Under the pieces are notes generated by a model. That model was not told the origin of the DNA. It saw only the letters and a program-made list of their open reading frames with translations, and did not search any database. From a virus (lineage: Duplodnaviria; Caudoviricetes), in the IMG/VR virus record IMGVR_UViG_3300032092_000031, positions 1 to 60,054 of that record: a DNA stretch of 60,054 bases; one strand, 5' to 3'. The translations under genes were made by a program, and so were the position numbers. Position 1 is the first letter of the stretch; each line of letters opens with the position of its first letter. Shown in pieces: positions 1 to 49,975 of the stretch.

Positions 1-3000
1 TGTGCAGAAATTTCAGTATCACTTCTACCAACAATAAACATTCTACTATTAGAGTTACCAATTTCAAATGGCTTAAAATATATACTATCCCACGCACTCG
101 GTGTAACTCCTAATCCTAAATTGCCTGAAGTATTGAGAGTCATTTGCTTACTTCCACCTGTATAAAAAGTAAGTGGAACATAACTACCTGTTGAACCATA
201 AGTAGAATATAATCCTACTTCTCCAGATTGTGCATATAGTAATCCTTGTATATCGTTTGCATCTGATACTTGAGAATTTACTATTCCTATTACAGAAAAC
301 TTACGCAATGGACTTGTAGTTCCAATACCAACATTAGTTCCATTATCATATACTAAGCTATTACCTATTGTACTTGCACCTGTAAACTTAGGTAGGTAGT
401 TAGTAGTACCTGTACCCGTTACTGGATTAGTTAAAGCGTTTTGCTTATTGTTAAAGGTAGTCCAATCTGTAGAGCTTAAATAGCCATTTTGAGAGCCTGT
501 AGCCACTTGGATAGAGAAAGCCCCAGTTCCACTATTATAAGCCAATGGTGAGCTTGCAGATAGTGAAGAAAGGGTAATAAAGTTTGCACCATTAGTTAGC
601 TGACTTGTATTAGTTGGAATTGTAATAACACCGGTAGTATTATTATATGCTCCCGAACCTGCCGTAAAGCTTAATGCAAGTCTTGCTCTTGAATCTAAAT
701 AGTATAAATTAGTACCTTCTGAGATATTAGAAGTAGTCAAACTCACCGCTCCTGTAAACCCGTTCACCGAACTTACTGCGTCTGTATTGTCTACTTTATC
801 CCATGTAGAGCCGTTAAATATAGCCCAGTCACCCACTTTCCAATCGGTGATACCATTTAAGTTGGTAGAACCAGCTACATCTACTATGTAATAGTACCCC
901 TTAGTTCCTACAGAACTCGTTAATGTAGGGGTATTTGTAGATGCGTTCCATGTGCCTTGAAAAGTTACACCACCAGCTAGTCCTGAGATTTGGTTTTGCA
1001 CCTTACCAAAAGCCTGTAATATAGAATCAGTAGCAGCAATAGAGCCACCACCTGTTAAATTTAATCCTGTAAGTAATTTACCTGTAACAGCAGAAGTACT
1101 TAAAGTTACTGTTGCACTTCCCGGTCCTGAAGCTGTAGCCTCTCCCGTTAATGCAGTAATGTAACTTCCTGCTGCTTGTTTATTATAAAAAGTATTCCAA
1201 TCAGTTGAGCTTAAATAACCATCACTAGCAGCTCCTGATTGAGTAATGCCAATAGTACCTGTAGAAGTTATAGTTCCACCTGTTATTGGACCCGTAGTTG
1301 CAATGCTTGTAACTGTACCCACTCCTGAACCACCTACTAAAGCAATAGTTCCTGTAGCACTTGGTAAAGTATAAGTATAAGTACCATTAGTTATAGTAGA
1401 ATCTAATCTTAATTGACCTGTGAATCTACCCGTACCACTAACATCTAATTTATATGTGTCATTGGTATTTCCTATTGATAAATTTCCAGAGCCGTTTAAG
1501 GTCATTAATCTATTAGCTAATTGACCATTCCAAAAAGATATTTCGCCACCGGTTGTATTTGAACTTAATAAAAGGTTATTTAAATTTATACCAATTATTG
1601 CGTTTCCTACTCTAACTGTATTATCTGCATATAAAACTCCCGTAAACCTTCCTGCGCCATTAACATCTAATTTATACGAAGGTGATGCAGTTCCGATACC
1701 AACATTAGTTCCATCATCAAAGATTTGACTATTTCCTATCGTACTTGTACCCGTAAATTTAGGTAAATAATTTGTAGTTCCTGTTCCTGTTACTGGGTTT
1801 GTTAATACGCTTTGATATTGAGGAATATTTAAAGTAGCCCCTACTAATGTAGCAGCACCACTTGTACCTGTTGTTGTTAAAGTTAAAGCGTTTTGCTTAT
1901 TGTTAAAAGTAGTCCAATCTGCACTTGATAAAGCACCACGATTAGTAGCACTTGCCGTAGGTAGATTAAAGGTATGTGTAGCCGTTGCACTTGAAATATT
2001 AAAATCACTACCGCTTGTACCTGTTGCAAAATATTGTACTTGTGCAGTCAAGCCATTAAGAGCCGTTAAGCCTGTTGTAAACGTAGTAATAACTTGACAT
2101 AAATTACTATCTTCAGTATGTAAAGTAATTGTTCTACCTGCCGTTGTAACATAGATGCGAATAGCTAATCTATCCGTTAAAGTTAAAGTTGTTTGCGGAA
2201 CTGCTAAAGCAGTAAAATATGCTTCAACACTTGTTCCACTATTAATTATCTTAGGGTTTGTGCTATTAGAAGCAATTAGCGTAAAAGTAGTGCCATCGTA
2301 TTTGTATAACTCAATATAAAAAGTTGGAGTACCACCACCGCTTGAAGCCTCGAAATATGTTTCAAAATTAAAGTTACCTGCTGGAATATTTAACAAAGCA
2401 GGGTCATTAGCATCAGTTAAAAACGATGCAATATATCCGTTAGAACTTATTGAAAAATCTGTACCTGTACCGATAACAGGTGTCCTATTCATTTCGTAAT
2501 AAGTAACACCGCCTATTGTACCTTGATTAATAGAGCCGTTCAAATAGTAAGAAACAGATGCGCCACCACCGCTACCACTTGTTGGTAACGTAGCTAAAGC
2601 GCCATCTCCTCTAACATATTGAGTAGCGTTACCTTCAAAAGAAAATGCCAACGTACCTGCTGTAACGATAGGAGAATTACTTATTGAAATGCTATTCCCG
2701 GTAATAGAAGCAGCTACCGAGGTTACAGTTCCAGACGTTAACTGACTTGTTAAAGCTATTGTTCCACTTGCATCAGGTAAGCTATAAGTTCTTTGCGTAT
2801 TATTGGTAAGCGCAGATACATCAAATCTTCCTAACTTATAATTAGTACCTATTGAATCTTGGCTAAAATACATAGAAAGGTAAACCTTGCCTTCACCTGT
2901 AAGACTTGTGTATTCACCTCCTCCATATAATACACTTAAATTTTGTTTAAGACCTAAATACCCACCACCAAGTCCTCCTAATCCCGGACCAATTATATTT

Positions 3001-4439
3001 ATAGAATTTGCAGATAATGTATAAACACCTAAGTTAACATCATTAGTAGCTCCCGTATATGGTACATAATTACCTATAACGCTACCATAGTTAGGAATAT
3101 TTAAAGTTGTTCCTATTAAAGTAGCAGCTCCGCTTGAGCCTGTAGTGGTTAGCGTAATTGCACCTTGTTTACTATTGAACGTATTCCAATCGGTAGAGCT
3201 TAAAAAACCATTGCTTGAACTACCTGACTGAGTAATGCTTATTGCTCCTGTAGTGTTATTATATTGAATAGGAGCTGTTCCGCTTAAAGAAACTAAAGTT
3301 ATAAAGTTAGCACCATTTGTTAATTGGCTTGTATTTGTCGGTATTGTTATTACACCTGTTGTATTATTATAAGCACCACTTCCTGCAACAAAACTTAATG
3401 CAGTTAGAGGAATATAAGCATTTGGGTTAGAAGCTAAATAATAAGTACTATTATCATAGCTAATAGTTGTTCCGCTAATTTTAACAAAGCCAGTACCATT
3501 TAAAGCGCTCTGTTTATTATTGAAAGTTGTCCAATCAGTAGATGATAGATAACCATCAACAGAACCTGTAGCAACAGGAATAGAAACAACTCCTGAATTA
3601 TTTACTAATGGAGAGCTAAATGTTAGATTAATAATATCTCCAACTAGTGCAAATGTTCCATCTTTATCAGGGAACAAGTATTGTCTTGGAGTTGTTCCAA
3701 GAATAGCAGAACTTAATTGAGCAATCTTTTGGCTTCCATTAGCTTGGCTATATCTTATGTGTAAATCATTTTGAGTAACTGCATATATAGAAGTATAGCC
3801 GGGGATTCCTGATAGAGAAGTTGAGTATTGTTTGAAAGCCATGTAACCACCAACAGAACCTGTTCCATTTGAAAGATAGTTCTGTGCTGTTATATTATTA
3901 GCACCTAGATTTACACTAGTAGTTGCCCCCGTATAAGGAACATAAGAAGTAAGAGCACTACCGTAATTAGGAATGTTTAGTATATTGTTAATTAGGGTAG
4001 CTGTTCCTGAAGAGCCAATAGTAGTTAGGCTATTGATTCTATCTGTATAAGACTCATCCCAATTATCTATGTCTGATTGTGTTATTAGTTTTACCCATGC
4101 CGGAACTGTTGGGTCCGTCTCCTCTGTTAAGAAATTAACAGTGTTGATTCCTGTAACCTGAGCTACCTGGCTGTAAATAGGAGTTAAACTTCCGTAGTCG
4201 TATATCTCCATCATTGCCTCTAGCCTCTCTACAATAAAGTCCATACGAGCGTCTCCCACCCTGTCATTTACCTTACCCCACTCTACTGCGTATTTATATA
4301 AAAATATGATGTCTCTATCATACCAATAGGTTTCATCTAGCTCAGCGAACTTCTTGTTATAAGCTACGCTGCCTAATATGTGAATTGCCCTATCAGCTTT
4401 TGATAGTACTGCATTTATTTGAGTTAAAGTATACCCCAT
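1..4439 (-). CDS. Giant tail fibre/spike, N-terminal ~1479 aa (runs off window start; continues at window end)
   Basis: ATG at 4439 overlaps the stop of the upstream gene (TAATG) and reads MGYTLTQINAVLSKADRAIH... The ORF track lists no minus-strand fragment here, consistent with an open frame to base 1. G/T/S-rich repeats (DWxTFxxKQ x5, NYLPKFTG, NVGIGT). Confidence 0.85.
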   Translation of the reverse strand, partial: MGYTLTQINAVLSKADRAIHILGSVAYNKKFAELDETYWYDRDIIFLYKYAVEWGKVNDRVGDARMDFIVERLEAMMEIYDYGSLTPIYSQVAQVTGINTVNFLTEETDPTVPAWVKLITQSDIDNWDESYTDRINSLTTIGSSGTATLINNILNIPNYGSALTSYVPYTGATTSVNLGANNITAQNYLSNGTGSVGGYMAFKQYSTSLSGIPGYTSIYAVTQNDLHIRYSQANGSQKIAQLSSAILGTTPRQYLFPDKDGTFALVGDIINLTFSSPLVNNSGVVSIPVATGSVDGYLSSTDWTTFNNKQSALNGTGFVKISGTTISYDNSTYYLASNPNAYIPLTALSFVAGSGAYNNTTGVITIPTNTSQLTNGANFITLVSLSGTAPIQYNNTTGAISITQSGSSSNGFLSSTDWNTFNSKQGAITLTTTGSSGAATLIGTTLNIPNYGSVIGNYVPYTGATNDVNLGVYTLSANSINIIGPGLGGLGGGYLGLKQNLSVLYGGGEYTSLTGEGKVYLSMYFSQDSIGTNYKLGRFDVSALTNNTQRTYSLPDASGTIALTSQLTSGTVTSVAASITGNSISISNSPIVTAGTLAFSFEGNATQYVRGDGALATLPTSGSGGGASVSYYLNGSINQGTIGGVTYYEMNRTPVIGTGTDFSISSNGYIASFLTDANDPALLNIPAGNFNFETYFEASSGGGTPTFYIELYKYDGTTFTLIASNSTNPKIINSGTSVEAYFTALAVPQTTLTLTDRLAIRIYVTTAGRTITLHTEDSNLCQVITTFTTGLTALNGLTAQVQYFATGTSGSDFNISSATATHTFNLPTASATNRGALSSADWTTFNNKQNALTLTTTGTSGAATLVGATLNIPQYQSVLTNPVTGTGTTNYLPKFTGTSTIGNSQIFDDGTNVGIGTASPSYKLDVNGAGRFTGVLYADNTVRVGNAIIGINLNNLLLSSNTTGGEISFWNGQLANRLMTLNGSGNLSIGNTNDTYKLDVSGTGRFTGQLRLDSTITNGTYTYTLPSATGTIALVGGSGVGTVTSIATTGPITGGTITSTGTIGITQSGAASDGYLSSTDWNTFYNKQAAGSYITALTGEATASGPGSATVTLSTSAVTGKLLTGLNLTGGGSIAATDSILQAFGKVQNQISGLAGGVTFQGTWNASTNTPTLTSSVGTKGYYYIVDVAGSTNLNGITDWKVGDWAIFNGSTWDKVDNTDAVSSVNGFTGAVSLTTSNISEGTNLYYLDSRARLALSFTAGSGAYNNTTGVITIPTNTSQLTNGANFITLSSLSASSPLAYNSGTGAFSIQVATGSQNGYLSSTDWTTFNNKQNALTNPVTGTGTTNYLPKFTGASTIGNSLVYDNGTNVGIGTTSPLRKFSVIGIVNSQVSDANDIQGLLYAQSGEVGLYSTYGSTGSYVPLTFYTGGSKQMTLNTSGNLGLGVTPSAWDSIYFKPFEIGNSNSRMFIVGRSDTEISA
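89..130 (+). repeat. 42-bp exact repeat of 59254-59295
   Basis: CCCACGCACTCGGTGTAACTCCTAATCCTAAATTGCCTGAAG in both places. Confidence 0.9.
354..410 (+). repeat. 57-bp repeat (1 mismatch) of 59501-59557
   Basis: Encodes GTTNYLPKFTGASTIGNSL in both copies. Confidence 0.9.
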
Positions 4440-5001: not shown

Positions 5002-8000
5002 TTACTTCCTGCGACCTAATTGGAATAGCTTCTCCTTTATCATATCTCCTTTTAGTGTTGTTTTCGAGTACTCTTCGCTTTCCATATATCTTAAATAATC
5101 TATAAAATCCAATTTCTTTTGTTTTACTTCTTTTGAATCGGAACTGAAATCCTTAGACTTTTTGTATAAATCTTCTATAACAGAAGCCTTTGTTTCAATA
5201 ATCGACTTCTTGTACGCATCTAAATATTCTGAACCAAAATTATCCTCGATAGCTCTCTCTGTATAAGCTCCTAGTACTCTTGAGTCTTTAAAAAACTCTA
5301 TAGCACCTAGAACTCCTGATATTTCAGACATTCTCTGGTCACTAGAAGCGCTGTTCATTATATCATATGCAACCCTTCCTCTTATTGATGGACTCCTTTC
5401 TTTAACTAAGTTTATTACAGCCACATCTCTAGTTACATTTCTAACTATAGTTTCTATAACTTTTTGATTCATTCCGTATACTACCATCTTCTTGTACTTA
5501 AGAGACTTTTCAGGACCAAGGTCTTTTTCTATATCTTTTAATAAAGAATTCATGTCATTTATAAGAAATTCTCTAAGCTCATCTATTGATTTACCTAAAG
5601 CCTTAGTCTTTTCTGCTCTTGATTTTATTAGATTCTGCATTACGTCATTCCCACCTATTTCTGTTGTAAGCAACGCATAATCCATCATCTTATTCGTAAC
5701 TTGATTTAAATAGTATTTCTCAGGAGAAGCAACCAGTCTGCTCCCAACAGATGATACAGGAGATGATATAAGTATACCCGGGTCTTCTTTTATAGCCTTT
5801 ATTAATGAATTATCCTTGCCTGCAGCTTTTTCATATATAGAGTTCATTAAGTTCACTGTTATCTGAGTTAATGGGTTTCTCTTAAAGTCTCCAGTAAAAG
5901 ATTCTATTGCAGCTTGCGTTCTAGGTCCTGAAACTAATCTGCTTTTTTCTGCTATAGCCTGAATCATAGGAAGTGTTCCGTCTTTTTTCTCTGCGTACGC
6001 AAAACCACCAGTAGATTCATCGCTTACAATCTCATATCCTGTAAAAGGGTCTATATTTAAAAATCCTTTAGATAGAGCACTTAGCGTTGGAGGTACAGAA
6101 ACTTGACCAACACCAACCATGTCTATAGCATCTCTTACAGAATGGAGCAAAGGAATCATCCATGAGTCAGTCTCTATAGGGTCATTCATATAATCTCTTA
6201 AGCCATAGCTAACGAATCCAGTATACATCTCTTTTGCTAGGAATGGGAGAGGCACTTTTATGAATGCATTAGTAACGCCATCTCCAATATTATGCTTTGG
6301 GTTTCTAATTATCGCATAATTCTTTTTGTAGTAATCAGGCAGAGCTCTATACATCTCTCCCCAATACTCCTTTTCTTTTTCGTCATCAGATAGCGCACCT
6401 ATTGAAAACAATGTGGCATACGTTGCGCCTGCAACCATTTGCGACATTACAAAACTCGTTCTTCCTGGGCTCTTTTTAAATGCCTTGATAACAGCTCTTT
6501 TAGTAGCGTATGATGCAGATAAGTAAGGTATAAAATTATTCATGAATTTAATTGCATCTCCAACTCTAGAAAAGTTTGCTGTATTTCTAGATTCAGATGC
6601 CGCCAACTGACCAGCCTCTTCTGAAGAAAACCCTTTATCCATAAAATATTTCTTAGACTTCTTATAAACTATAAGCCTTGTCATCTTCTCAGTTGCACTA
6701 ACAATTGACTCACTAAAATCTATTGTACTATTAATACCGGATACAACTTGTTTTACGCCAAATAGTTCAAGTGGATTAAATCCAACCTTCTCGAATATAT
6801 TCTTATGACTAATACTATCATCTATGTATTTAATTCCTGTAAATATTTTATTATCATAAAACTTATCCATTCCGGACCTTAGCGCAATATCGCCAAACAC
6901 TCCGTTCTTAACAGCTTCTTTGTATATGGCATCTTTGTTTCTAATACTTGTACTAGCGGAAACCCATTGAGCTGCTATTTCTGTATATCCTACAGGGAGA
7001 ACAGGATTAATACCTCTAGCTGTAAGTATTGCTTGTATCGGGTCTAATGTAACTAACTGTGTTACACCAAATCCAGCATTAGCGATAGTTGCAAAAAATC
7101 TTATGGCTTTTACTCCAAGCACCATTGATGCTATATTTACCCATCTATCAGTTTTAGAGCTTTGATAGAATTCTTTTGAAAACCACTCAGGTACAGTTAA
7201 CATCTTGTCTCCGTCACTATATCTAACTCTCATGTTGATGTATCCATCTTTTGGTTTTACATAAACTTTATCGCCAAATTTATCGGTCTTATCTGTGCCA
7301 TCATTATTCTTTTCAGTCTCAGCTACTTTTACTGCAATATCTTGATTAAATATATTGGTGCTATCCATCTGAGGTAGCTCCGACCTTACAGCAGTATCAA
7401 GCAACTGAAGGGCTTTGTTTGAAGCTATGTTCCTAAGTGCAGTTGTAGCATATACGTTAAATAACGCAGAATAATCTGTTATAGCGGCACCATCAGAACC
7501 TCCCTTCAAAGACTTTATTGTATTTCCGCCCTGAGTTGCTACGAATGAGTTATTCTCTAGTAGCGTTTCATTTATATATCTAATAGGAACGTATTTATAC
7601 TGAGATAAGTCGTCATATACTGCTTGAGATACCAAACCTGCCTCATATTGTTCATCTAATATTGATTTGAATGCAGAGAAGGCTGATTCTGACCTAGCAT
7701 CAATATCAGCGAATTTATCTGATTTAGAAGCTGCATTCAAAAAAACTTTAGCATAATCGGATGTGTATGGAACTCCATTTATAGACTCCATTTTATACTT
7801 ACCTAAAGAATATGTTCCATCTTGATTTCTTATCAAGACACCTCTTTCTGCTATATATTCTAAAGATTTTTGTCTTTTATTTCTAGCTTCTATAACCTTA
7901 TCTGTAGCTGCTTTAATTTCTTCTGACCTAGATTCTATTTCAGACATTATCTTGTCAGCCTTTTGATGCCTGTCTCTAACAAGTTCGACTAACTTATCAA

Positions 8001-16891: not shown

Positions 16892-17662
16892 TTATCCTTT
16901 AACAACCAATTTCTGTCCTGCTCTTATAGTGCTATTAGCTTCCCATAGTCTTATTGGGTTAACTCTTTGTTTAGCTAATCTCTTTTGATTATAGTAGTTG
17001 CTCTTTCTAAGCTGCTTCTCTCCCATATTAACTTTTCTAGAAGAAGCAAGAAACTCTATATCTTTCCATGCTAAAAAAGCAATAGTAGCTTCTACTATCT
17101 GAATTGGTATTTTAAAATCTTGGTCATTAGAAGCATCTGATAGATACTCTAATATAATATAATCATAAGCAAAGTCGTTATCTAGATAGATGTAACCTTG
17201 CTCTTCATCTATATTAAACTCTCCTGCATCATTTAGCATAGAGCCATTACCGAATAAGTTAACATAACCTGCTCCGCTGTAATAGTTTACATAGCTCCAG
17301 AATCTGCTATCATAAGCATCACCTATTCCTTCGTCTGTGTTATTACTAGTTCTATCTGCATCAGCTATCTTGTAGGCTGTTTTATTTGGATTTCTTTTTA
17401 AGGTAGCAACTTCACCATCTGCATTTAGTACACCTATTTTAGTGTATGCTAAATAATCAGCAGGTAACTCAACAGTTTTGTTTGGCTTAACTACTAACTT
17501 CTCTGTTTTAGGAGTATAGAACACATCCATTCCTAACTCATTAACACCTCTAATTCCTAGAGCCCAAAGTCTTCTAAACTCTGCACTAGTTAGATGAGCC
17601 TGGTCTATATAGTTATATATAACCTCTGCTAACGGAACCCATTGTGCTGTTGCTTTACTCAT
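16892..17662 (-). CDS. Tail ring/adaptor-like structural protein
   Basis: 256 aa; VELPADY and IILEYLSD motifs; one of three adjacent similar-sized genes between capsid and muzzle. Confidence 0.6.
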   Translation of the reverse strand: MSKATAQWVPLAEVIYNYIDQAHLTSAEFRRLWALGIRGVNELGMDVFYTPKTEKLVVKPNKTVELPADYLAYTKIGVLNADGEVATLKRNPNKTAYKIADADRTSNNTDEGIGDAYDSRFWSYVNYYSGAGYVNLFGNGSMLNDAGEFNIDEEQGYIYLDNDFAYDYIILEYLSDASNDQDFKIPIQIVEATIAFLAWKDIEFLASSRKVNMGEKQLRKSNYYNQKRLAKQRVNPIRLWEANSTIRAGQKLVVKG

Positions 17663-17668
17663 AATTTA

Positions 17669-18274
17669 TTACGCTTTATCAACACCATCATTAGCTAAAT
17701 CTTGAGGTGTTTGTTTTTTAATTCTTAATTGACCCATAATCCAATCCATAGCCGAAGCAATATAATCTTCAGGTATCTCATCTATTTTAGGGCTAACCAT
17801 CCTTACAATAGGAGCTTTGCCTATTAAGTTAATATAGCTCTTCATGTATAATCTTTTACCTTCAGGCCAGAAAAATATCTTACTTGGAGGCGTAGGTAAT
17901 TGGTCCATATAATCAAGTTCTTTAACAGATACTTGGATTGGAGCTTTAGCTAATCCTGAACTAACAGGAAAAGTTAATGTTGCTATATTGTAACCTCTTT
18001 TTGACGCTAATGGTGCTTGAGGTAAATCAAAGTAATAATACCCTGTATCGTTATCTTTAGCTATTGTAAAACCTTTGAATGTAGAATAGAATACATCTCC
18101 AATAGTTTCAATACCATCTAACTCAATAGCTTCTCTGTAGTTTATTGTAACAGCTCTACCTACGGCAGCATCTACATACAAATCAACTTCTTCCGGTGTT
18201 AATTCTGCATCAGAACTAGGAATACCATTGTAGTAATTCCTTCTTACTAATTCTATAAATTGACTTCTATTCAT
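17669..18274 (-). CDS. Tail ring/adaptor-like structural protein
   Basis: 201 aa; YFDLP motif and C-terminal PQDLAND; synteny. Confidence 0.55.
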   Translation of the reverse strand: MNRSQFIELVRRNYYNGIPSSDAELTPEEVDLYVDAAVGRAVTINYREAIELDGIETIGDVFYSTFKGFTIAKDNDTGYYYFDLPQAPLASKRGYNIATLTFPVSSGLAKAPIQVSVKELDYMDQLPTPPSKIFFWPEGKRLYMKSYINLIGKAPIVRMVSPKIDEIPEDYIASAMDWIMGQLRIKKQTPQDLANDGVDKA

Positions 18275-18277
18275 GCG

Positions 18278-18940
18278 TTATTCTCCTTTAGCTTTAACTT
18301 GATTTGCAGCCTGTATGATTAATTGGTCATTAATGCTTACACCAATTAGACCAACAGCTCTCATTATTATCTTGTTTAAATCTGCGTCATTCCACTCTGA
18401 CTGCGTACTAGTTCCGGCATCATAAACAGGTCTTCCTGATACTGTTGTGTATCCCCAAACAGGAGGAGTTGGTAATCTAAGAAATGTTATATTGGCTGTT
18501 GTTAATGTTGTAGGATAAAACTTATAAGTAGAACCAACCTCATTGAAGCATGGCTTTGTTAAAGTTGGAGCATCTATTGAGCTATTTAATTTACTAGCAA
18601 GTTTTGAGTGGTCTATTCTAGGTATATCAACATTTCCTGTTGTTCTCATTGATATAGCCTTAAATAGGTTAGCAGGAACATTGGCACTTCCTGAAGTTAT
18701 GGTTAGGGTAGATGTCTGTATGAATGCAGATAATGCCTCATTTACATTATTACCCATTCCTAATCCTATTCTAGATATTGGTCTTCCTGGTTGAAAATCC
18801 TCAACACCACCTGCAAGCATATCAAAATAAGACCTTTCTGCCATAGGAAATATCCTATTAAAGTCCTCTGGAGATACGCCTGTTCCTTGATACTTATCTA
18901 CTAGATAGGCTACAATTTTAAAGCAGTCATTTATATTCAC
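18278..18940 (-). CDS. Tail ring/adaptor-like structural protein
   Basis: 220 aa, GTG start; VSPEDFN, FLRLP..PVWGY motifs; synteny. Confidence 0.6.
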   Translation of the reverse strand: MNINDCFKIVAYLVDKYQGTGVSPEDFNRIFPMAERSYFDMLAGGVEDFQPGRPISRIGLGMGNNVNEALSAFIQTSTLTITSGSANVPANLFKAISMRTTGNVDIPRIDHSKLASKLNSSIDAPTLTKPCFNEVGSTYKFYPTTLTTANITFLRLPTPPVWGYTTVSGRPVYDAGTSTQSEWNDADLNKIIMRAVGLIGVSINDQLIIQAANQVKAKGE

Positions 18941-18954
18941 GTGTCAAATTTGTA

Positions 18955-18962
18955 CAAAGTTA
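18955..18962 (-). promoter_or_regulatory. -7 promoter element TAACTTTG
   Basis: TAnnTTTG just downstream of a terminator and 14 nt before GTG 18940. Confidence 0.55.
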
Positions 18963-18969
18963 AGCATAT

Positions 18970-19006
18970 AAAAAGAAACCCCTCCAACTAAGAATAGTAG
19001 AGGGGT
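18970..19006 (-). terminator. Intrinsic terminator
   Basis: ACCCCTC/GAGGGGT stem followed on the minus strand by TTCTTTTT. Confidence 0.7.
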
Positions 19007-19037
19007 AAACCAAAAGCAAATGAAACAAAAACCTATT

Positions 19038-19916
19038 TTAAGATAACTCTTTCAATTTGTTATAGAACTCTGCTCCCTTTTCTGTAAGGGCAAATTCTGA
19101 TAGGAATTTAGCTGCATCTGCTCCGTCAGGAATCTGGGCAATAAGGAGTTTTGTTTGTCTCCAATGTGCCTGACCCTTGATATGTGCAATAGTAATAAGG
19201 TTATTCTCCATAGCCTTAGTTACCATGTACTTAGCTTTTACTACAGGATTATTTACAGTCTTTAAGAATAAATCAGGGTTGTTCTGTGCTTTAGTCACAT
19301 AATCAGACCTAATTGCACTTTCAGACCTTGGCTCTCCTGTTTCATAACTAAACTTAACATTCAAGAATTTAGCGTGAGCTAACATCTCTTCTTCACTAGC
19401 GTTCATTGCAACTTTCATTGCTTCTAGCTTGTTTTCAGACTTCTTAAGTTGCTCTTCTTCCGCTTCCTCATAATTAATCATTGTGTAGGTTGCAGGAGCG
19501 AACTTGTCCATTTTGTTCTTCTTCTTATCGTATTGGTCATTCTTTAATAAGAACTCTACCAATGTTGGCTTTGTAGAAGGAACTCTCAAGAATCCATCTT
19601 TAAACTGAATGTTAGGTCTTCTGTTTTGAATGCTTTCAGGTAAAGAATCCTGCTCATCTTGCCAGATAGTAGAAATACCCTCAAGGTATCTTGTAGCTCT
19701 TTCTCTACCTGTTTCCTCATCAAACACTACGCTTTTATTTCTAAGAGCAAATGTTGGAGGGAATGATAAGGTTCCGTCTTGATTTCTGAAATTTACTAAC
19801 AACTGGAATACATACTCCGAAGGTTGTCTTTTTTTCTTAACCTCTTGTTTAACAACAGGCTGTTCTACTTCGATGATTTCACCATCTTCAGATAGAATAC
19901 TTTTAGCTTTTGCCAT
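19038..19916 (-). CDS. Conserved head-module protein of unknown function
   Basis: 292 aa; FKDGFLRVP...LVEFL motif; downstream of the capsid gene with its own promoter. Confidence 0.55.
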   Translation of the reverse strand: MAKAKSILSEDGEIIEVEQPVVKQEVKKKRQPSEYVFQLLVNFRNQDGTLSFPPTFALRNKSVVFDEETGRERATRYLEGISTIWQDEQDSLPESIQNRRPNIQFKDGFLRVPSTKPTLVEFLLKNDQYDKKKNKMDKFAPATYTMINYEEAEEEQLKKSENKLEAMKVAMNASEEEMLAHAKFLNVKFSYETGEPRSESAIRSDYVTKAQNNPDLFLKTVNNPVVKAKYMVTKAMENNLITIAHIKGQAHWRQTKLLIAQIPDGADAAKFLSEFALTEKGAEFYNKLKELS

Positions 19917-19935
19917 TTTATTTCTTTTGTTTTAG

Positions 19936-19943
19936 CAAAGGTA
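19936..19943 (-). promoter_or_regulatory. -7 promoter element TACCTTTG
   Basis: Part of a 21-bp sequence (19924-19944) identical to 23221-23241. Confidence 0.65.
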
Positions 19944-19954
19944 TGTATTTTGTA

Positions 19955-20575
19955 CTATATACCTTGTTCTTGATATACCTTGAGTAGCCTGTCAGGTAGA
20001 ACAGAGTAGTCCTTCATAAAGGTCTTTGGCATACTAGCTATCAATACTTTATTTCTATACGGGCTGTTTTTTGGAGAAGTCCACCTCCTGATATTCAGTA
20101 TGTAGTTGTAGAAATATATGTAAGCATTAGCTCCTCTAATATACTCGTCTATGTCTATAGGAAGATTGTATTTCTTTATCATTTTAACAGCCCTTTTTTC
20201 GGCATCAACCTCAAGGTCTCTACATATTGCTATGTGCTTTTTAATGTCTCTAATTTGCTTCCCTTCTATCCATTCGTGCATTGCTGAATGAGAGTTCTTT
20301 CTTGAAGCTAAATCCCATATATCGCTATTTTCTGCCCACTGATGAAAGTGCGAGAATTCATGAGCTAATAAAGCTAGTCCTTTATCGTGCTTCATACTAC
20401 ATACTAACTCTCTATCTTCTCCGTCAAACCATCCTCCACATTTGAATCCACCTAGCTTTACATATGATACGTCTCTTATGCTACATTTTACCCCATACAG
20501 CTTACAAGTAGCTATTACTTCTTTTATGAAATTTATACTATTCTTATCCTTAAACTTACTTAACACTTTTCTCAT
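19955..20575 (-). CDS. Putative zinc metallopeptidase (HExxH)
   Basis: LAHEFSHFHQW followed by downstream E..A (LEVDAEKRA), zincin-like. Confidence 0.6.
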   Translation of the reverse strand: MRKVLSKFKDKNSINFIKEVIATCKLYGVKCSIRDVSYVKLGGFKCGGWFDGEDRELVCSMKHDKGLALLAHEFSHFHQWAENSDIWDLASRKNSHSAMHEWIEGKQIRDIKKHIAICRDLEVDAEKRAVKMIKKYNLPIDIDEYIRGANAYIYFYNYILNIRRWTSPKNSPYRNKVLIASMPKTFMKDYSVLPDRLLKVYQEQGI

Positions 20576-20589
20576 AGCTACTATTTCAG

Positions 20590-20597
20590 CAAATTTA
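20590..20597 (-). promoter_or_regulatory. -7 promoter element TAAATTTG
   Basis: Between the capsid terminator and ATG 20575. Confidence 0.55.
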
Positions 20598-20602
20598 TGA
20601 AC

Positions 20603-20635
20603 AAAAAAAGGGCCCTAGAATTAACTAGAGCCCTT
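20603..20635 (-). terminator. Intrinsic terminator after major capsid gene
   Basis: AAGGGC.CTAG / CTAG.GCCCTT stem followed by a T-tract on the minus strand. Confidence 0.75.
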
Positions 20636-20662
20636 ATATTTAACCTATTGATTAGTAATCAA

Positions 20663-22051
20663 TTATGGCTTCACAACTACGAATTGGTTAGCTGCGAATG
20701 TACGAAGACCTGCAGAGCAAGCGTGGCTGATAACTAAGTTCAACTTATCAGAAGTTGGAACTTTAGCAAGACCACCAGTTTCCCATACTTTCAACTCTTT
20801 ACCTGGCTCGATTTCGTTGTAAACAACTTGTAAGCTAGGAATGTTGTCGCCTGTACGAGCATCTCTGTTAGATTTCATAGGAGCCAAGATACCGAAGTTC
20901 TTGTACTTCTCTGTAGCAGGAGCTACACCGTATACAGCTTCAGCGTTGAATCCTAAGAACTTCTTAAGGTGGTAAGTAATACCATCAATCTTGATGCTAT
21001 CAAAACCATACTTAACAGCTACATCATTGCTACCACCTACTGCAGCCCACTGGATTGCACCATTTTGGTATTTAGCGAATAATGCATCATCAATCTTGCT
21101 ACGTAAGTAGCTATCCATCAAGAAGTGATACTCAGAAGCACCACCGTTGAAGTCTACTAAACGGCTAATTGCATGGAAATCTTCGATATCGAATACGCTA
21201 TCAGAATTCCACTGATGAGTTTGACCACGAGACTCGATAGTAGGGATAAGACCGCTAGTACCGTTATCGCCTGCACGGCTGTTAGTTGCTTGAACACCGA
21301 AAAGTAAAGTAAACTCTTTATTGTTTAAGAAACGATTAACCGCTTCTTTAGCACCTTTACGAGTATATTTCGCTTCGCCATCAAAGCTAACCCAAAGCTC
21401 TTGCATCATAGCCTTGTCAGTGATTTCGAAATCTTCACGAATCATAGTAGTCGTGTTAGTGTAACGATTTACTAATTCTGTTTGAGAATCAACTTTAGTT
21501 GAAGCCTCACCAGAAAGAGATGCGCCACGGCCTAATAACCAGCTACCTGAAGGTAAGTTAGTTGAGTTAAGAACGTAAGTGCTTTGTAAAGGAACAACTG
21601 TCATAGTGTGAGCACCTGCGGTTGCTTTGTTTACAGCTACGCATTTTACTAAAATACCTGTTGCTGCGATTTCATAAACTTCACCTACACGGATTGGAGA
21701 CTCTGCACCTGATGTGTTAGGGAAGTGAGAAGCTGCAGTAATGGTGATTGTAACACCTTCGCCTGCTTCGATAGTAGTATCTGCATCAGAATAAGCTGCA
21801 GTTTCTGCCGGAGCACCTGTAGTCTGTACAGCGAAATGACGCTTACCACGACTCTCATAGTGACCGAATTCTGTAGCTTGTACTACTTGTTTGTTACCTA
21901 GCATTTCTAGGATTTGAGTGTAAGATTGAGCGCCATAAGCCTCAATAAATTGGTCGTAGTTCTGTGGCTTCAATAAAGACAATGCGGTTACGAACGCTTG
22001 CGATACTGCTCCACCTTGAGGAACTACTCCACCTGGTTGTAATGTTGCCAT
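20663..22051 (-). CDS. Major capsid protein
   Basis: 462 aa after portal and acidic scaffold; N-T-MIREDFEIT, E.TLLFG, GLIPTIE and terminal GLRTFAANQF fit an HK97-fold MCP; high-expression codon bias; followed by a terminator. Confidence 0.85.
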   Translation of the reverse strand: MATLQPGGVVPQGGAVSQAFVTALSLLKPQNYDQFIEAYGAQSYTQILEMLGNKQVVQATEFGHYESRGKRHFAVQTTGAPAETAAYSDADTTIEAGEGVTITITAASHFPNTSGAESPIRVGEVYEIAATGILVKCVAVNKATAGAHTMTVVPLQSTYVLNSTNLPSGSWLLGRGASLSGEASTKVDSQTELVNRYTNTTTMIREDFEITDKAMMQELWVSFDGEAKYTRKGAKEAVNRFLNNKEFTLLFGVQATNSRAGDNGTSGLIPTIESRGQTHQWNSDSVFDIEDFHAISRLVDFNGGASEYHFLMDSYLRSKIDDALFAKYQNGAIQWAAVGGSNDVAVKYGFDSIKIDGITYHLKKFLGFNAEAVYGVAPATEKYKNFGILAPMKSNRDARTGDNIPSLQVVYNEIEPGKELKVWETGGLAKVPTSDKLNLVISHACSAGLRTFAANQFVVVKP

Positions 22052-23216: not shown

Positions 23217-23232
23217 GTTACTTTTGTTTTAG

Positions 23233-23240
23233 CAAAGGTA
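23233..23240 (-). promoter_or_regulatory. -7 promoter element TACCTTTG for scaffold/capsid operon
   Basis: TAnnTTTG 16 nt before ATG 23216. Confidence 0.65.
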
Positions 23241-23243
23241 TAA

Positions 23244-45781: not shown

Positions 45782-46334
45782 AAAACCGCTTCCTAAAGAA
45801 GCCGTTATGCCGCACCCTAGTAAGCAAAACTTATCTACTATTAAAGCTATCTATGTAACAGAAAGATTTAATGATGTTTTCGGTATTGGTGGTTGGACAA
45901 TTAAAACTGATTTAATCGACAATCCGCTTGCACTAGTAAAGAATATAAAGATAACGAAGGCTGGCGCTGAACGTACCGAGTATACGGCACTAATGAAAAC
46001 AAAGTTTGAGGCCGCAGAGTATGGCATATACTATGAGTGCGTAGCCTCATCTACTAATGATGATATTGGAGACGCTAGTAAAGGTGCGGCAACCGATGCT
46101 ATCACTAAAATAGCTTCTTACATAGGTATCGGAATTGATGTATTCAAGGGTCAACACGATAAGGCTCTTGTAGATTATTCTAACAACCTTTTCACTGACG
46201 ACATTAAATCTTCTATAGATAAATGTAAAACGAAAGAAGAGGTCATAGCACTATCTAAAAAGATGAGCGATGACGTAAAGAGTAATAAGGAGTTTAGATT
46301 GTACGTAACTAAAAAATTAGAATCATGCAAGTAG
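45744..46334 (+). CDS. Rad52/Sak-like ssDNA annealing protein
   Basis: YVTERFNDVFGIGGW and DASKGAATDAITK..SYIGIG. Confidence 0.75.
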   Translation: MKTLSQEQIALIKKPLPKEAVMPHPSKQNLSTIKAIYVTERFNDVFGIGGWTIKTDLIDNPLALVKNIKITKAGAERTEYTALMKTKFEAAEYGIYYECVASSTNDDIGDASKGAATDAITKIASYIGIGIDVFKGQHDKALVDYSNNLFTDDIKSSIDKCKTKEEVIALSKKMSDDVKSNKEFRLYVTKKLESCK

Positions 46335-47098
46335 ATTTAGAGTTTTTGAAGAGCAGGCCACTTAGCTTTTCTTCAATCAAAGAGTTTGATAAAAGTCCGG
46401 CTCACTATGTACATTACATCAACTCTAAAAGAGAGCCATCAGATGTAATGAGATTCGGAAGCCTGGTGCATGCCCACATACTAGAACCTGATACAGTTGA
46501 ATCTAGATTCTTTGCCATGCCGGATGTAGACAGAAGAACATCGGAAGGTAAGGCTAAATGGAAAGAGGCAGAAGAGATGTCTCAGGGTAAAGAGATTGTA
46601 ACATCTGCTCAATGGAGTAATGCAAAATCAATGATTGATGTAATGAATCAGTCAACTGAATTTACTGATATTATTTCTAAGCTAACCCATAAGGAAAGAA
46701 AGTTTGAGTACGAACTATCAGGACTGCCTTTTACTGGCTACATTGATGGAGAGGCGGATGACTTTTTCCTAGAAGTAAAGACTATTGATGATGCTTCTTA
46801 TAGCAATATTCAAAAGAGATTCGCAGACCTTAAATATCATTGGCAAGCAGGCCTATATAGCGAGGTAACAGGTAAGAAATGCTTGTATCTAATCATTCAG
46901 ACAGGTTCTGTATTTGATTTTGGATTCATGATTCCTGACCAAGAGTTTATCGAGTTAGGTAAATATGCCGTTAAAAAGGCTGCTAATGACTTCTTAGGCT
47001 GTATGATAGCAGATGGCTTCAATGTGGGCATAGATTGGAAGGTAAACAATGAAAATACCTTGTCTCTTCCAGGTTGGATGATAAAAGTTAATAACTAG
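46325..47098 (+). CDS. PD-(D/E)XK exonuclease (RecE/ExoVIII C-terminal, DUF3799-like)
   Basis: LSFSSIKEF..SPAHY, FGSLVH..ILEP, GYID...EVKT, YHWQAGLY. Confidence 0.8.
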   Translation: MQVDLEFLKSRPLSFSSIKEFDKSPAHYVHYINSKREPSDVMRFGSLVHAHILEPDTVESRFFAMPDVDRRTSEGKAKWKEAEEMSQGKEIVTSAQWSNAKSMIDVMNQSTEFTDIISKLTHKERKFEYELSGLPFTGYIDGEADDFFLEVKTIDDASYSNIQKRFADLKYHWQAGLYSEVTGKKCLYLIIQTGSVFDFGFMIPDQEFIELGKYAVKKAANDFLGCMIADGFNVGIDWKVNNENTLSLPGWMIKVNN

Positions 47099-47122: not shown

Positions 47123-47130
47123 TATATTTG
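47123..47130 (+). promoter_or_regulatory. -7 promoter element TATATTTG
   Basis: Intergenic, with half-operator TTGCTA at 47107. Confidence 0.55.
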
Positions 47131-47145
47131 CAATAAATATATTGA

Positions 47146-47481
47146 ATGTCAAAAAGATTCGACATAATTAAATGGATGGATGAGCTTCCTGAGACAACTC
47201 AAAGAGGCCTGATATTCCAAACTCACGACCTAGACAGAGAATGGCTAGAGTTTACCGTGAGAGATAGCAATGTAACATACGAAGATTATGAGTTCCAGTT
47301 AGTAGATAATACCGATGATGATGGCCTCTTCTCCAAAAAGATGGAGGCCGTTCCTTTGGGTACTAAAAGATACAACGGGGATAAGGATATTAGAATGTAC
47401 ACATTCCACAACAATGAACCATTTGTATATGATGTAAAAATAGTGTTTGGGAAAGTAAAGCACGTAAGGAGGGTTAAATGA
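47146..47481 (+). CDS. Hypothetical protein
   Basis: 111 aa; FQT.DL motif. Confidence 0.65.
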   Translation: MSKRFDIIKWMDELPETTQRGLIFQTHDLDREWLEFTVRDSNVTYEDYEFQLVDNTDDDGLFSKKMEAVPLGTKRYNGDKDIRMYTFHNNEPFVYDVKIVFGKVKHVRRVK

Positions 47482-47714
47482 GTCGCCTCAAATATATAAA
47501 CAAAAGCAAATTACAAAAATCATTCCCAAGTTTAGCAGAGCAGTTAGAAGAAATACCTAAAAACCATAAGTCACACTTCTACTGGTTCTTTGCCAACTAT
47601 TCAGGGAAGTATAAAGATGTGAAGGGTAAACCAAGAACAGTATCCATAGGGGCTGTATTAGATGTATTCGACCAACTAGGATACGATATTCAAATCAATG
47701 TAACAAAAAAGTAA
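47478..47714 (+). CDS. Hypothetical protein, possible HTH
   Basis: 78 aa; C-terminal VLDVFDQLGYDIQI. Confidence 0.55.
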   Translation: MSRLKYINKSKLQKSFPSLAEQLEEIPKNHKSHFYWFFANYSGKYKDVKGKPRTVSIGAVLDVFDQLGYDIQINVTKK

Positions 47715-47725
47715 ACCAAAAGCAA

Positions 47726-47995
47726 ATGTCACAAACCAATTACATTAATGGCATCAAATTTGCCAAGTCTAGTCAGTATGGCGTTAAGTTCCTTATTGAT
47801 GTTAAGTTGTTAACAGAAGAGTTAACTAAACTTCAAGATGAGAAGGGCTCTGTAAAAGTTGAATTAAAGAATAGAAAGAGTCCGGATAAGTTCGGCTCTA
47901 ACATGTTCGCTGTTCAAGATACATGGGTTCCAACAAAGTCTGCAACTCAGGAAAGAGTTCCTGTTAAGGAAGCAGATGACGACCTACCATTCTAG
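47726..47995 (+). CDS. ssb: Single-stranded DNA-binding protein
   Basis: 89 aa with acidic DDDLPF tail; near annealase/exonuclease/primase. Confidence 0.7.
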   Translation: MSQTNYINGIKFAKSSQYGVKFLIDVKLLTEELTKLQDEKGSVKVELKNRKSPDKFGSNMFAVQDTWVPTKSATQERVPVKEADDDLPF

Positions 47996-48088: not shown

Positions 48089-48156
48089 ATCCGGTTAGTT
48101 TAATTGGTAAAACTATTCGTACGGATAAGATATTGGTTCGATTCCAATACCGGATT
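48089..48156 (+). tRNA. tRNA-like element / pseudo-tRNA with truncated anticodon arm
   Basis: Acceptor ATCCGGT/ACCGGAT, TA, D arm GTTT-AATTGGTA-AAAC, TATTC-GTAC-GGATA, T arm ATTGG-TTCGATT-CCAAT; no CCA. Confidence 0.65.
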
Positions 48157-48172: not shown

Positions 48173-49975
48173 ATGAACGTCACAGTATTCAAACATTACT
48201 CGGATGTAGGTAATCCAATTTACACATCCGTGGATAACGTATTACATTCCATCAAGACAGGTGGTAAGAATTTAGAACTTATAAATAAGATTAGGAACTC
48301 GGAAGACAAATCCGAGAGAACAGAACTCAAAAAGGAGTTACCGTGTGTATGTTTCGCAGGAGAGTTTAGAAGACCGATAGCTGACTCTGGAAGAGAGTCG
48401 TACAGAAACGATAGGTCGCTTACAAAACACAGCTCATTAGTTCCTATTGATGTTGATTCCATAGACAATGTAGAAGAGTTAAAGGAGGCATTAATGCACG
48501 AGCCTTATGTATACGCATTGTGGACATCATCATCAGGTAGAGGGCTTCATGGTCTAGTTAGAATATCTGACGGCAATAAACATAGAGAGCATTATAGAGC
48601 ACTATGTAAGAAGTTTCCATTCCTAGATACTACTGCACAAAACGAGAGTCGTATTTTATTCCTATCGTATGACCCCGACATTTACATCAATGAGATTGCT
48701 GTTCCTTTTTACGAACTAGAACAAGAAGAGGCTGTTTTTTTTGGAGACGCAATAAACTTGTCGCAAATATCTACTGATTACAGAAAGCTAGATGTAGCTG
48801 CTCGTATGATTAGGAAGGCTCCTGATGGGGAAAAGCATAAAGTTTTATTGTCTGCATCAAATCTTATGGGTGGATATGTTTCTGCCGGAATCATGGAGTA
48901 TGATGTGGCTAGGGAAACATTGATACACGAGATTTCAAAAAGAAATGTAGATGATATATCGTTAGCAAAGAAAACTATTGAAGACGGTTTAAGATTCGGT
49001 ATGACAAGACCTTTAACAGAGGTTAATTCTGAACTGTTAAATGTAGAGCATGACCTTGGTATTATAGACCAAGAGTTATCGTTTCTTTCAGATAACATAG
49101 CTGATGAAGATTACATCTACAAGTTTAAGCATGGCATGATTCCTATGGGTATGCCTTATGGGTATAAAGACCTAGATGAACATTTGCTTCTAAAAGAAGG
49201 AGAGTTCTATGGAATACTTTCTCACGCTAATACCGGAAAGACAACTATCAACTTATGGTTAGCTTTTCTTGCTGCACACAAATACGATTGGGGTTGGTTT
49301 ATATTCTCAGGAGAGAACAAGACCGCATCAATAAAGATGAGGCTAATAGAATATTATACAGGGTACAAGATTAAAGATGTGCCCCAAGATATTTTTGAAG
49401 TCGCTATGAAGTGGGTAAATGATAGATTTTTTATTATGAATAATCTAGATATGGTAACATATAAAGACATATTAAATAACGTCATCACCACAGCTAAATA
49501 TCGTTCAATAAAAGGATTGCTTATAGACCCATACAACTCACTAAGTATGGAGTTAGGTAGAGCAACACAATATGATTACAATGTTAGAGCGTACTCTGAA
49601 ATATTATTATTCACTAAGAAGCATAACATCAGCACATTCCTATCTGTTCATACTAATACTAATGCACAAAGGACTGTTGACAAAGATGGTAACCAACTTC
49701 CACCAAGGGCAGCAGATGCTGAAGGTGGCTCTGTCTTAATGAATAAGACGGACAACTTTATAACTATTCATAGAAATATATATGATGCAGCCACGTGGAT
49801 GAACACGGAAATCTATGTTCACAAGATTAGAAACAAAGACACTGGCGGTAATCCTACGCAGTCGAAGAATCCTATCATCTTAAAGTTAAGAGGTGGAGTT
49901 GAGTTCGTTGACTTGTATGGAGATACGCCTATTAAAAGAATTCCTAAACCAACATCAAAAAATATTCCGTTCTAA
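48173..49975 (+). CDS. Primase-helicase: BT4734-like N-terminal primase domain + DnaB-like helicase
   Basis: LKKELPCVCFAG.F, IDVD, S.SGRGLHGLV, LFLSYDP (BT4734-like); HANTGKT, FSGEN, LIDPYN, SVH, K.R (SF4 helicase). Confidence 0.82.
   Translation: MNVTVFKHYSDVGNPIYTSVDNVLHSIKTGGKNLELINKIRNSEDKSERTELKKELPCVCFAGEFRRPIADSGRESYRNDRSLTKHSSLVPIDVDSIDNVEELKEALMHEPYVYALWTSSSGRGLHGLVRISDGNKHREHYRALCKKFPFLDTTAQNESRILFLSYDPDIYINEIAVPFYELEQEEAVFFGDAINLSQISTDYRKLDVAARMIRKAPDGEKHKVLLSASNLMGGYVSAGIMEYDVARETLIHEISKRNVDDISLAKKTIEDGLRFGMTRPLTEVNSELLNVEHDLGIIDQELSFLSDNIADEDYIYKFKHGMIPMGMPYGYKDLDEHLLLKEGEFYGILSHANTGKTTINLWLAFLAAHKYDWGWFIFSGENKTASIKMRLIEYYTGYKIKDVPQDIFEVAMKWVNDRFFIMNNLDMVTYKDILNNVITTAKYRSIKGLLIDPYNSLSMELGRATQYDYNVRAYSEILLFTKKHNISTFLSVHTNTNAQRTVDKDGNQLPPRAADAEGGSVLMNKTDNFITIHRNIYDAATWMNTEIYVHKIRNKDTGGNPTQSKNPIILKLRGGVEFVDLYGDTPIKRIPKPTSKNIPF

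Follow-up and report, generated by a model that had tools for sequence, protein, structure and literature searches.

A conserved 3' tail of a phage structural-gene mRNA, complementary to an early SSB-like operon, as a candidate trans-acting antisense element

Base-pairing mRNA ends and the shut-off of early genes

Several bacterial regulators that act by base pairing, such as CpxQ, SroC and DapZ, are embedded in or derived from the 3' untranslated regions (3'-UTRs) of mRNAs. In other cases the UTR of a full-length mRNA is itself the antisense partner and no separate small RNA is involved: in Staphylococcus the icaR 3'-UTR pairs with its own 5'-UTR, and in Listeria the hly 5'-UTR pairs with prsA2. 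The shut-off of early genes in phages is known mainly through proteins, as in phage T4, where RegA and RegB act post-transcriptionally, or through the locus-bound antisense RNAs of temperate phages. The phage small RNAs named in the available part of PMC12197685 are OOP, aQ, sar, c4, DicF, STnc6030, StxS, AgvB and AsxR, and none of those named there is the tail of a structural gene acting on early starts. UTR-derived RNAs that accumulate, or that were proposed to be regulators, have been described in phages phiKZ and 201phi2-1 (PMC8545117; PMC11512511); the available parts of these two sources describe neither target nor mechanism for them, and the 201phi2-1 cases derive from 5'-UTRs. A full-text literature search returned no structural-gene tail acting on early starts, supplementary tables being a place where further candidates may be listed.

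The locus described here belongs to the window, that is, to the whole 60,054 bp of a linear IMG/VR virus record (estimated 88% complete, G+C content of about 36%). In this window, the minus-strand mRNA of a structural-module gene encoding a 292-aa protein ends in an untranslated tail, of which the 18 nt next to the terminator (19005-19022) are perfectly complementary to the initiation region of an 89-aa SSB-like gene. This tail may work like a 3'-UTR-embedded base-pairing regulator, and would be neither a cis-antisense RNA nor a processed immunity RNA of the c4 type. As in CpxQ, SroC and DapZ, a conserved single-stranded seed is situated directly upstream of the intrinsic terminator of an mRNA and would pair with an unlinked initiation region. 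The tail differs from this class in its origin from a virulent-looking phage, in being aimed at the phage's own replication module, in the unusual length of the perfect duplex (18-20 nt) and in the host, since, to our knowledge, the likely host phylum has neither Shine-Dalgarno-led initiation nor Hfq. It resembles icaR and hly/prsA2 in that the UTR of a full-length mRNA would be the antisense partner, but these are bacterial cases within one mRNA or between virulence genes, whereas here the temporal classes of a phage would be linked. The task would be the same as that of T4 RegA and RegB, namely the late silencing of early initiation regions, the agent being a protein in T4 and, as proposed, an RNA here.

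With lambda OOP and aQ, P22 sar and P1/P7 c4, as far as these are described in the available part of PMC12197685, the tail would share the pairing of a phage RNA with a phage mRNA and the timing of expression; in sar and c4 the pairing takes place at or near the ribosome-binding region. According to the same part of that source, OOP, aQ and sar come from the strand facing their target; since the sites at 19005 and 47711 are 28.7 kb apart, the tail is not a cis-antisense RNA of the OOP/sar type. c4 is described there as a dedicated RNA, processed from the lysogeny immunity operon that it controls, whereas the tail is the end of a structural-gene mRNA that belongs to a different transcription unit from its target and is read from the other strand.

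The 292-aa gene and its untranslated tail

The source of the window is likely a freshwater phage with Flavobacteria-like hosts. The distant relatives of the 292-aa protein were found only in Flavobacteriia phages (63 GenBank records, all below 60% identity, of phages that infect Flavobacterium, Cellulophaga and Maribacter), and lake metagenomes and metatranscriptomes are rich in this phage family, the window stretch being present in runs from 17 studies (6 of these are RNA libraries). A blastn search with 18000-22000 against GenBank phages gave no match. Minus-strand genes occupy 1-32.6 kb and 53.7-60 kb and include those for large and 'virion structural' proteins, and plus-strand genes occupy 33.6-53.6 kb and include those for a primase/helicase and a PD-(D/E)XK nuclease. 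The motif TAnnTTTG, which we take to be the -7 promoter box of Bacteroidota, is present within 60 nt upstream of 13/72 genes, about 2.5 being expected from its genome-wide density. At the two ends of the window, giant minus-strand ORFs (1-4439, 1479 aa, running off the end; 56225-60054, 1263-1275 aa) have numerous exact repeats of 16-40 nt in common, and repeats also occur inside the second; these ORFs probably encode paralogous fibre- or repeat-type proteins.

The 292-aa gene and the elements around its 3' end are the following:

18278..18940, minus strand: next gene, GTG start, PHROG 'virion structural protein'
18955..18962, minus strand: TAACTTTG, TAnnTTTG box before the next gene
18966..18977, minus strand: U-rich run 3' of the hairpin, read off the sequence
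18978..19006, minus strand: terminator-like hairpin with 12 pairs, a 4-nt loop and one bulge
19005..19037, minus strand: untranslated tail of 33 nt, from stop codon to hairpin, predicted to be mostly unpaired
19038..19916, minus strand: 292-aa structural-module gene (ORF; stop codon at 19040-19038), carrying the tail on its mRNA
19936..19943, minus strand: TACCTTTG, which fits TAnnTTTG, 27 nt before the ATG of the 292-aa gene

The TACCTTTG box sits inside a 21-nt repeat (19924-19944) that recurs exactly at 23221-23241 (complement ATACCTTTGCTAAAACAAAAG), the two copies being placed just upstream of the 292-aa gene and of a 381-aa gene. A plus-strand gene at 44073 is preceded by the similar TACCTTTGTTAAAAC, and the repeat and this sequence look like one promoter or leader class common to three genes.

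A search of Pfam with the 292-aa protein gave no match, and a search of PHROGs gave unknown-function families only. For its AF2 model (pLDDT 78.9), Foldseek returned no PDB match, and the best Z of the VIA wide comparison was an uninformative 6.3 over 56 residues. In total, 129 homologues of the protein were found. One of them is gp105 of Cellulophaga phage phi18:3, annotated as 'hypothetical' (NC_021794.1 51874-52806); for the neighbouring gp104 and gp112, the annotation 'virion structural protein' is based on mass spectrometry. Since gp105 is 'hypothetical' and its neighbours were confirmed by mass spectrometry, the 292-aa protein may be located outside the mature virion, for example as an assembly protein.

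Downstream of the 292-aa gene, a G+C-rich hairpin is followed by a U-run, as in intrinsic (Rho-independent) terminators. The predicted fold of 18978..19006 reaches -20.7 kcal/mol (z -2.5), and 1 of 200 shuffles was as stable. This hairpin is absent from the list produced by a simple terminator scan, because its stem is bulged, and a search of Rfam with 18800-19200 returned no family. Two other readings of the tail were ruled out, namely a small ORF on either strand, which is not conserved in relatives, and a -33/-7 promoter, the elements of which would be too far apart (about 45-50 nt).

Four contigs of IMG/VR share 96-100% identity with the window and were uninformative. In the window's own clade, 5 further contigs have an unaltered 18-mer in the tail and 7 have one at the target; both sites being invariant, there is no covariation in this clade. 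More distant loci were collected with a profile of the 292-aa protein, which yielded 28 distant viral contigs (40-52% identity) and 55 metagenome loci, i.e. 83 loci, the metagenome loci counting toward tail conservation only and not toward covariation. The 3' region was readable in 80 of these loci (40 distinct sequences), and three were left out because they were too short or lacked the C-terminus. A tail of about 33 nt is kept in all 80 readable relatives, the 292-aa protein being only 40-52% identical, and the 80 loci have a common plan: stop codon, tail of about 30 nt, hairpin, T-run, TATATTTG and next gene. The core of the tail, GCTTYGTGTT...TATGGTTTNATTGGTT, hardly varies: its mean majority fraction is about 0.87, as against 0.65-0.83 in the adjoining coding sequence; column identity in the promoter of the next gene (0.84-0.91) is comparable to that of the tail. 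The hairpin was found at the same place in 19 of the 19 genomes folded, with stem sequences that vary freely by lineage, and the tail is unpaired in the minimum-energy folds of the relatives. RNAalifold predicted no pairs for the 40 tails, the variable stems of which misalign. The two features of a 3'-UTR regulator, a position directly upstream of an intrinsic terminator and a conserved unpaired seed, are therefore both found here. The tail of the window is a diverged homologue of the element of its relatives.

In the cultured Cellulophaga phage phi18:3, whose homologue of the 292-aa protein is 25% identical, the tail and terminator are present, and elsewhere in this phage only 11-nt matches at chance level were detected. 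The terminators that follow the 292-aa gene and gene X (see below) in the family often have the same loop letters (GTTTCTAC or TTCTTA) on differing stems, as seen in relatives L019-L046 and L047-L061. A target in the host found no support: the invariant 20-mer of the relatives' tails gave 3 matches in unrelated contexts among 185,579 species genomes, which is about what chance would give.

Four RNA-library runs were compared over 17600-20700 in the form of contigs, which give no strand, no level and no true ends. Contigs of all four libraries cover the 292-aa gene, with 90-99% likeness. Two runs, each from a different study, contain a contig that stops at the tail/hairpin junction, one at 19003 and the other at 19005, and the loose letters at these ends are presumably sequencing adapter. 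In the four runs, no contig joins the tail to the hairpin and none extends over 18929-19002. The ends at 19003 and 19005 give a weak hint that an RNA ends there, and a processed small RNA made of tail and hairpin was not seen in these contigs. The ends could also mark a 5' end if the plus-strand copy at 19005 had arisen by duplication of a leader and gave rise to a plus-strand RNA running antisense into the 292-aa gene; this is very improbable, as no plus-strand TAnnTTTG box is present upstream, where the hairpin occupies the space, as relatives have no conserved ATG or ORF on the plus strand, and as the contigs give no strand.

Complementarity of the tail to the X/SSB-like operon

The complement of the tail is located in the replication module, which includes the following elements:

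46325..47098: PD-(D/E)XK nuclease (DUF3799)
47123-47130, plus strand: TATATTTG box, 23 nt upstream of the 111-aa gene
47146..47481, plus strand: 111-aa gene, first of the likely operon 111aa-X-SSB-like
47478..47714, plus strand: gene X, 78 aa, stop codon (TAA) within the 18-mer
47497..47519, plus strand: second, weaker complement of the tail, within X (codons 7-14)
47711..47735, plus strand: target site, comprising the X stop, an 11-nt spacer, the ATG and the first codons of the 89-aa gene
47726..47995, plus strand: 89-aa SSB-like gene (ORF), acidic C-terminal tip DDDLPF
48173..49975: primase/helicase gene, adjoining the 89-aa SSB-like gene

The 111-aa, X and SSB-like genes probably form one operon, because X and the SSB-like gene follow the 111-aa gene, which has its own TATATTTG box. 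None of 14 members of the X family matched Pfam and only marginal matches were obtained in PHROGs, so that neither database points to a DNA-binding family for X. As regards the OB fold of bacterial and phage SSBs, the 89-aa protein matches no Pfam or PHROGs family; its model (pLDDT 74) has its elements in the order beta-beta-alpha-beta-beta and resembles no PDB entry at E<=0.001. SSBs are defined by an acidic C-terminal tip, (D)-x-L/I-P-F. Such a tip follows a variable linker in the 89-aa protein, residues D85, L87, P88 and F89 (D-x-L-P-F) being invariant in 13 of 13 homologues.

An earlier note on this DNA had reported that GTAAACCAAAAGCAAATG occurs on the plus strand at 19005-19022 and at 47711-47728, with the ATG of the second copy as the start codon of the 89-aa gene, and that the minus-strand RNA before the terminator is in consequence an 18-nt perfect complement of this start. 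The two copies are indeed exact and the second statement is confirmed by the positions of the ORFs and of the hairpin; the partial matches that were quoted at 52210, 42784 and 54071 are all present. The designations 'late', 'abundant' and 'ssb', also taken from that note, are presumptive. No other exact copy of the 18-mer exists in the window, and a third site on the minus strand (5110-5127) has 3 mismatches to it. The likeness between the two copies stretches to 25 nt with 2 mismatches (47711-47735; 18 nt exact, 23/25 overall), and the target is predicted to be unpaired in its own mRNA.

Chance was assessed in several ways. None of 100 shuffles contained three or more matches of the 18-mer pattern at up to 3 mismatches, and none of 300 attained the window's exact complementary run. 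The earlier note had accepted that chance recurrence of 18-mers of such composition would speak against its proposal, and this objection holds in part: some exact direct repeat of at least 18 nt was present in 19 of 150 composition-matched simulated windows (segment-wise third-order Markov), so that the 18-mer repeat alone is not significant genome-wide. When the tail was compared with 73 start regions by RNAduplex, the 89-aa gene gave -26.3 kcal/mol, the next best -19.0 and the median -10.2, a value of -26.3 kcal/mol being equalled by none of 60 shuffled tails. Among 4022 sliding windows of the early module, 47711-47735 was again at the top (-31.6 kcal/mol; next -24.3). The second complement, at 47497..47519, has a local alignment score of 29 (rank 2 of 72 genes) and an RNAduplex energy of -21.4 kcal/mol, the fifth among distinct early-module sites.

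The same locus was then considered in relatives, using 18 whole contigs which, with the window, make 19 genomes. X homologues are present in 16 of the 19 genomes (window included) and 89-aa homologues in 15 of 28 contigs, and X is directly upstream of the 89-aa gene wherever both occur. A scan of viral contigs for X added 2 contigs with both genes and none of intermediate distance to the window; genomes with 80-95% identity to the window did not turn up. In the tree of the 292-aa protein, eight genomes form a supported clade (clade A; 96/94), the other ten (B) make up three groups, and the window stands alone on a long branch. In 10 of the 16 genomes with X, the longest exact complement to the tail and hairpin arm, both strands considered, falls in the X..SSB-like locus, which represents 0.5-1% of the sequence space (both strands); in the remaining 6, just 1-3 longer matches are found outside this locus. 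When local alignments to all genes were ranked, the 5' region of X came first in 8 of the 16 genomes, between ranks 2 and 4 in 5, and between ranks 11 and 16 in 3. All in-locus complements are on the sense strand of the early genes, and it should be noted that A-rich sense strands bias matches toward early leaders.

The position of the match depends on the lineage. In the eight clade A genomes, the complement of the whole tail is at the start region of X (-18..+14), where RNAduplex energies of -29.5 to -35.4 kcal/mol compare with medians of about -11 for all start regions; the SSB-like start is mostly the second or third best pairing, and one relative has 20-nt perfect matches at the SSB-like start and at a third gene. 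In five genomes, the AUG of X is opposite an AUA of the tail complement, which would be a G-U pair in RNA. Two B genomes have the match at codons 3-13 of X, with exact runs of 12 and 15 nt and rank-1 local scores (38 and 35). In four genomes it is at the 3' end of X, as CAAACCATAA(G/T), and is read there in two frames (Q-T-I-S versus K-P-stop), which suggests that the nucleotides and not the protein are under selection. In the window the match extends from the X stop to the SSB-like start, and in one genome it is at the SSB-like start. In the B groups (10 genomes), a long complement to any start region is absent and the tail is nearly invariant; the longest Watson-Crick run was not above shuffles in 9 of these genomes, and Hamming scans remained at background (17-19 of 28). 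About half of the relatives thus have no long complement at start codons, and in these the matches to X, within the gene or at its end, measure just 10-15 nt. As the tail is nearly invariant in the lineages without long start complements, pairing with phage start codons cannot be the sole reason for its conservation.

Changes in the tail are mirrored in the X leader. The segment AAT[N]AAACC occurs in three states (A, G and a one-base deletion), and in 7 of the 8 clade A genomes the tail and the X leader have the same state, one genome being mismatched; CGAAG versus CAAAG is likewise mirrored between the tail and the X site. When RNAduplex energies were compared across genomes in a matrix, the best partner of the tail was the lineage's own X leader for all three lineages whose tail core is private; five genomes with one common core are indistinguishable. 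The observed pairing sum was reached by 9 of 20000 permutations; at the level of tail types the chance is about 1 in 24, because only some 3-4 independent types exist. Altogether, the complementarity exceeds chance and is kept in relatives, being weak or short in about half of them. The earlier note had looked to conservation and covariation in related phages as a test of the match, and its expectation was borne out, the complement recurring at the same early locus with mirrored changes.

It is unlikely, distinctly so, that the 18-nt identity of the window is due to chance or is a neutral relic of an old inverted duplication, with a tail that serves otherwise, by binding a protein, by aiding termination or as an upstream element of the next promoter. 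Such an origin would agree with the exact repeats of at least 18 nt in 19 of the 150 simulated windows, with the single strong target in the window and with the promoter-like conservation of the tail (0.87 versus 0.84-0.91), but it leaves unexplained why 10/16 genomes have their best complement within one and the same 0.5-1% of the sequence, at varied positions and with mirrored changes.

The proposed pairing, its direction and its breadth

These observations are explained most economically if the tail of the late mRNA pairs, as RNA, with the early X/SSB-like mRNA, an account that is favoured by the conserved unstructured tail at the foot of the terminator, by the sense-strand complements, by the start- and stop-codon sites that shift by lineage and by the mirrored changes. 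The mRNA of the 292-aa gene would run from the TAnnTTTG-type promoter to the hairpin terminator and would carry, just before the hairpin, the conserved single-stranded, U/G-rich tail of about 33 nt. This tail would base-pair in trans with the replication-module mRNA 111aa-X-SSB-like. In the window, the duplex would have 18 perfect pairs, or about 23/25 with a small internal loop, and would span the X stop, the short A-rich leader without Shine-Dalgarno sequence, the AUG and the first SSB-like codons. As the late mRNA accumulates, ribosome loading on the SSB-like gene would be blocked and/or the duplex would be cleaved; with a duplex on the SSB-like initiation region, repression of translation or duplex-triggered cleavage is likely. 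The anatomy, the conservation, the recurring complementarity at one locus of the relatives and the mirrored changes were observed; the pairing at the RNA level, the direction, sign and timing of the regulation, and the form of the agent (complete mRNA or processed fragment) are inferred. We consider the chances to be evenly balanced that the late-mRNA tail pairs with the early X/SSB-like mRNA and, in the window, covers the SSB-like start, because the tail is equally conserved where its complements measure 10-15 nt, because covariation events are few, and because a DNA motif or gene conversion would give much the same pattern.

If this pairing takes place, a lytic phage would possess, in a trans-acting mRNA tail, a timing device of a new and economical kind. 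It would provide an RNA-only feedback from late to early genes in hosts without Shine-Dalgarno pairing and Hfq, and would add to the small number of leads on how Bacteroidota and their phages regulate genes by RNA.

The direction of action could also be the reverse, the early X/SSB-like mRNA acting on the late mRNA and affecting termination, read-through into virion genes or 3'-end stability. Several observations would be consistent with this: the complement enters the 5' arm of the hairpin by 6-9 nt in two relatives (TAGGGGAATAACCAA, 15 nt), the early site of four relatives is just before X's own hairpin, so that two 3' ends would pair, and the RNA-library contigs of two studies end at the tail/hairpin junction (19003/19005). 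We nevertheless regard the reverse direction as quite improbable, since in the window the complement halts at the foot of the stem, with an overlap of 2 nt only, and since the early site of clade A and of the window is on a start codon, the classical place of repression.

As regards the breadth of action of the late tail, the early starts that share a 10-mer with the tail complement were counted:

Clade A: 33/324 early starts, roughly 4 per genome (1.8 in shuffles)
B groups: 2/372 early starts (1.1 in shuffles)
Window: 1/42 early starts (0.8 in shuffles)

At 9-mers, the window has 5/42 early starts against 1.5 in shuffles. In clade A, the corresponding 10-mer counts were 4/331 for late starts and 0/608 for internal windows. 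The broad masking of early initiation regions that the earlier note had proposed therefore finds support in clade A (33/324 versus 1.8) and does not hold for the window (1/42 versus 0.8), which has one strong target. In clade A genomes (G021, G023, G027, G015), AACCAAT[A/G]AAA recurs 2-12 nt before several early ATGs, and the A/G variant of these copies matches that of the tail of the same genome. By extension to the family, it can be proposed tentatively, as a possibility that we hold to be somewhat less than even, that in freshwater Flavobacteriia-type phages the tail of a structural mRNA is a trans-acting 'anti-message' against the phage's own X/SSB-like operon and, in one clade, against about 1/10 of the early leaders. 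The target site would then migrate along the operon in the course of evolution while the tail stays fixed.

The recurrence of AACCAAT[A/G]AAA before several early genes of clade A, and the 10-mers shared by 33/324 early starts (versus 1.8), would also fit with copies of one double-stranded DNA motif, made up of AACCA-type half-sites about 9 bp apart, in which case the RNA pairing would be incidental. The motif could be bound by a phage or host protein (a regulator, or a replication or recombination factor), or the two sites could be alike through inverted-repeat gene conversion. The core AACCAAT.AAACCATA indeed consists of two similar half-sites, the tail is invariant in lineages without any long complement, and the PD-(D/E)XK nuclease (DUF3799) of the phage could aid short-homology recombination. 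However, the copies are placed at mRNA landmarks (start and stop codons, feet of terminators), move inside one transcript by lineage with no fixed distance to a promoter, and have a single orientation relative to transcription; moreover, no DNA-binding family was found for X, and no second copy is found upstream of other late promoters. A DNA motif is considered to be unlikely but a serious rival, and pairing of the late tail with the early mRNA is retained as the preferred account.

Finally, a tRNA-like element is located on the plus strand at 48089-48156, between the SSB-like and primase/helicase genes. It scores 47.9 bits against the Rfam tRNA family (gathering threshold 29), its anticodon loop is cut to 2 nt, and it is not called by ARAGORN, which found no tRNA. 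The element is missing from the same locus in 12 of the 12 distant relatives scanned, and may represent either a tRNA in decay or a signal for processing of the early transcript by RNase P/Z.
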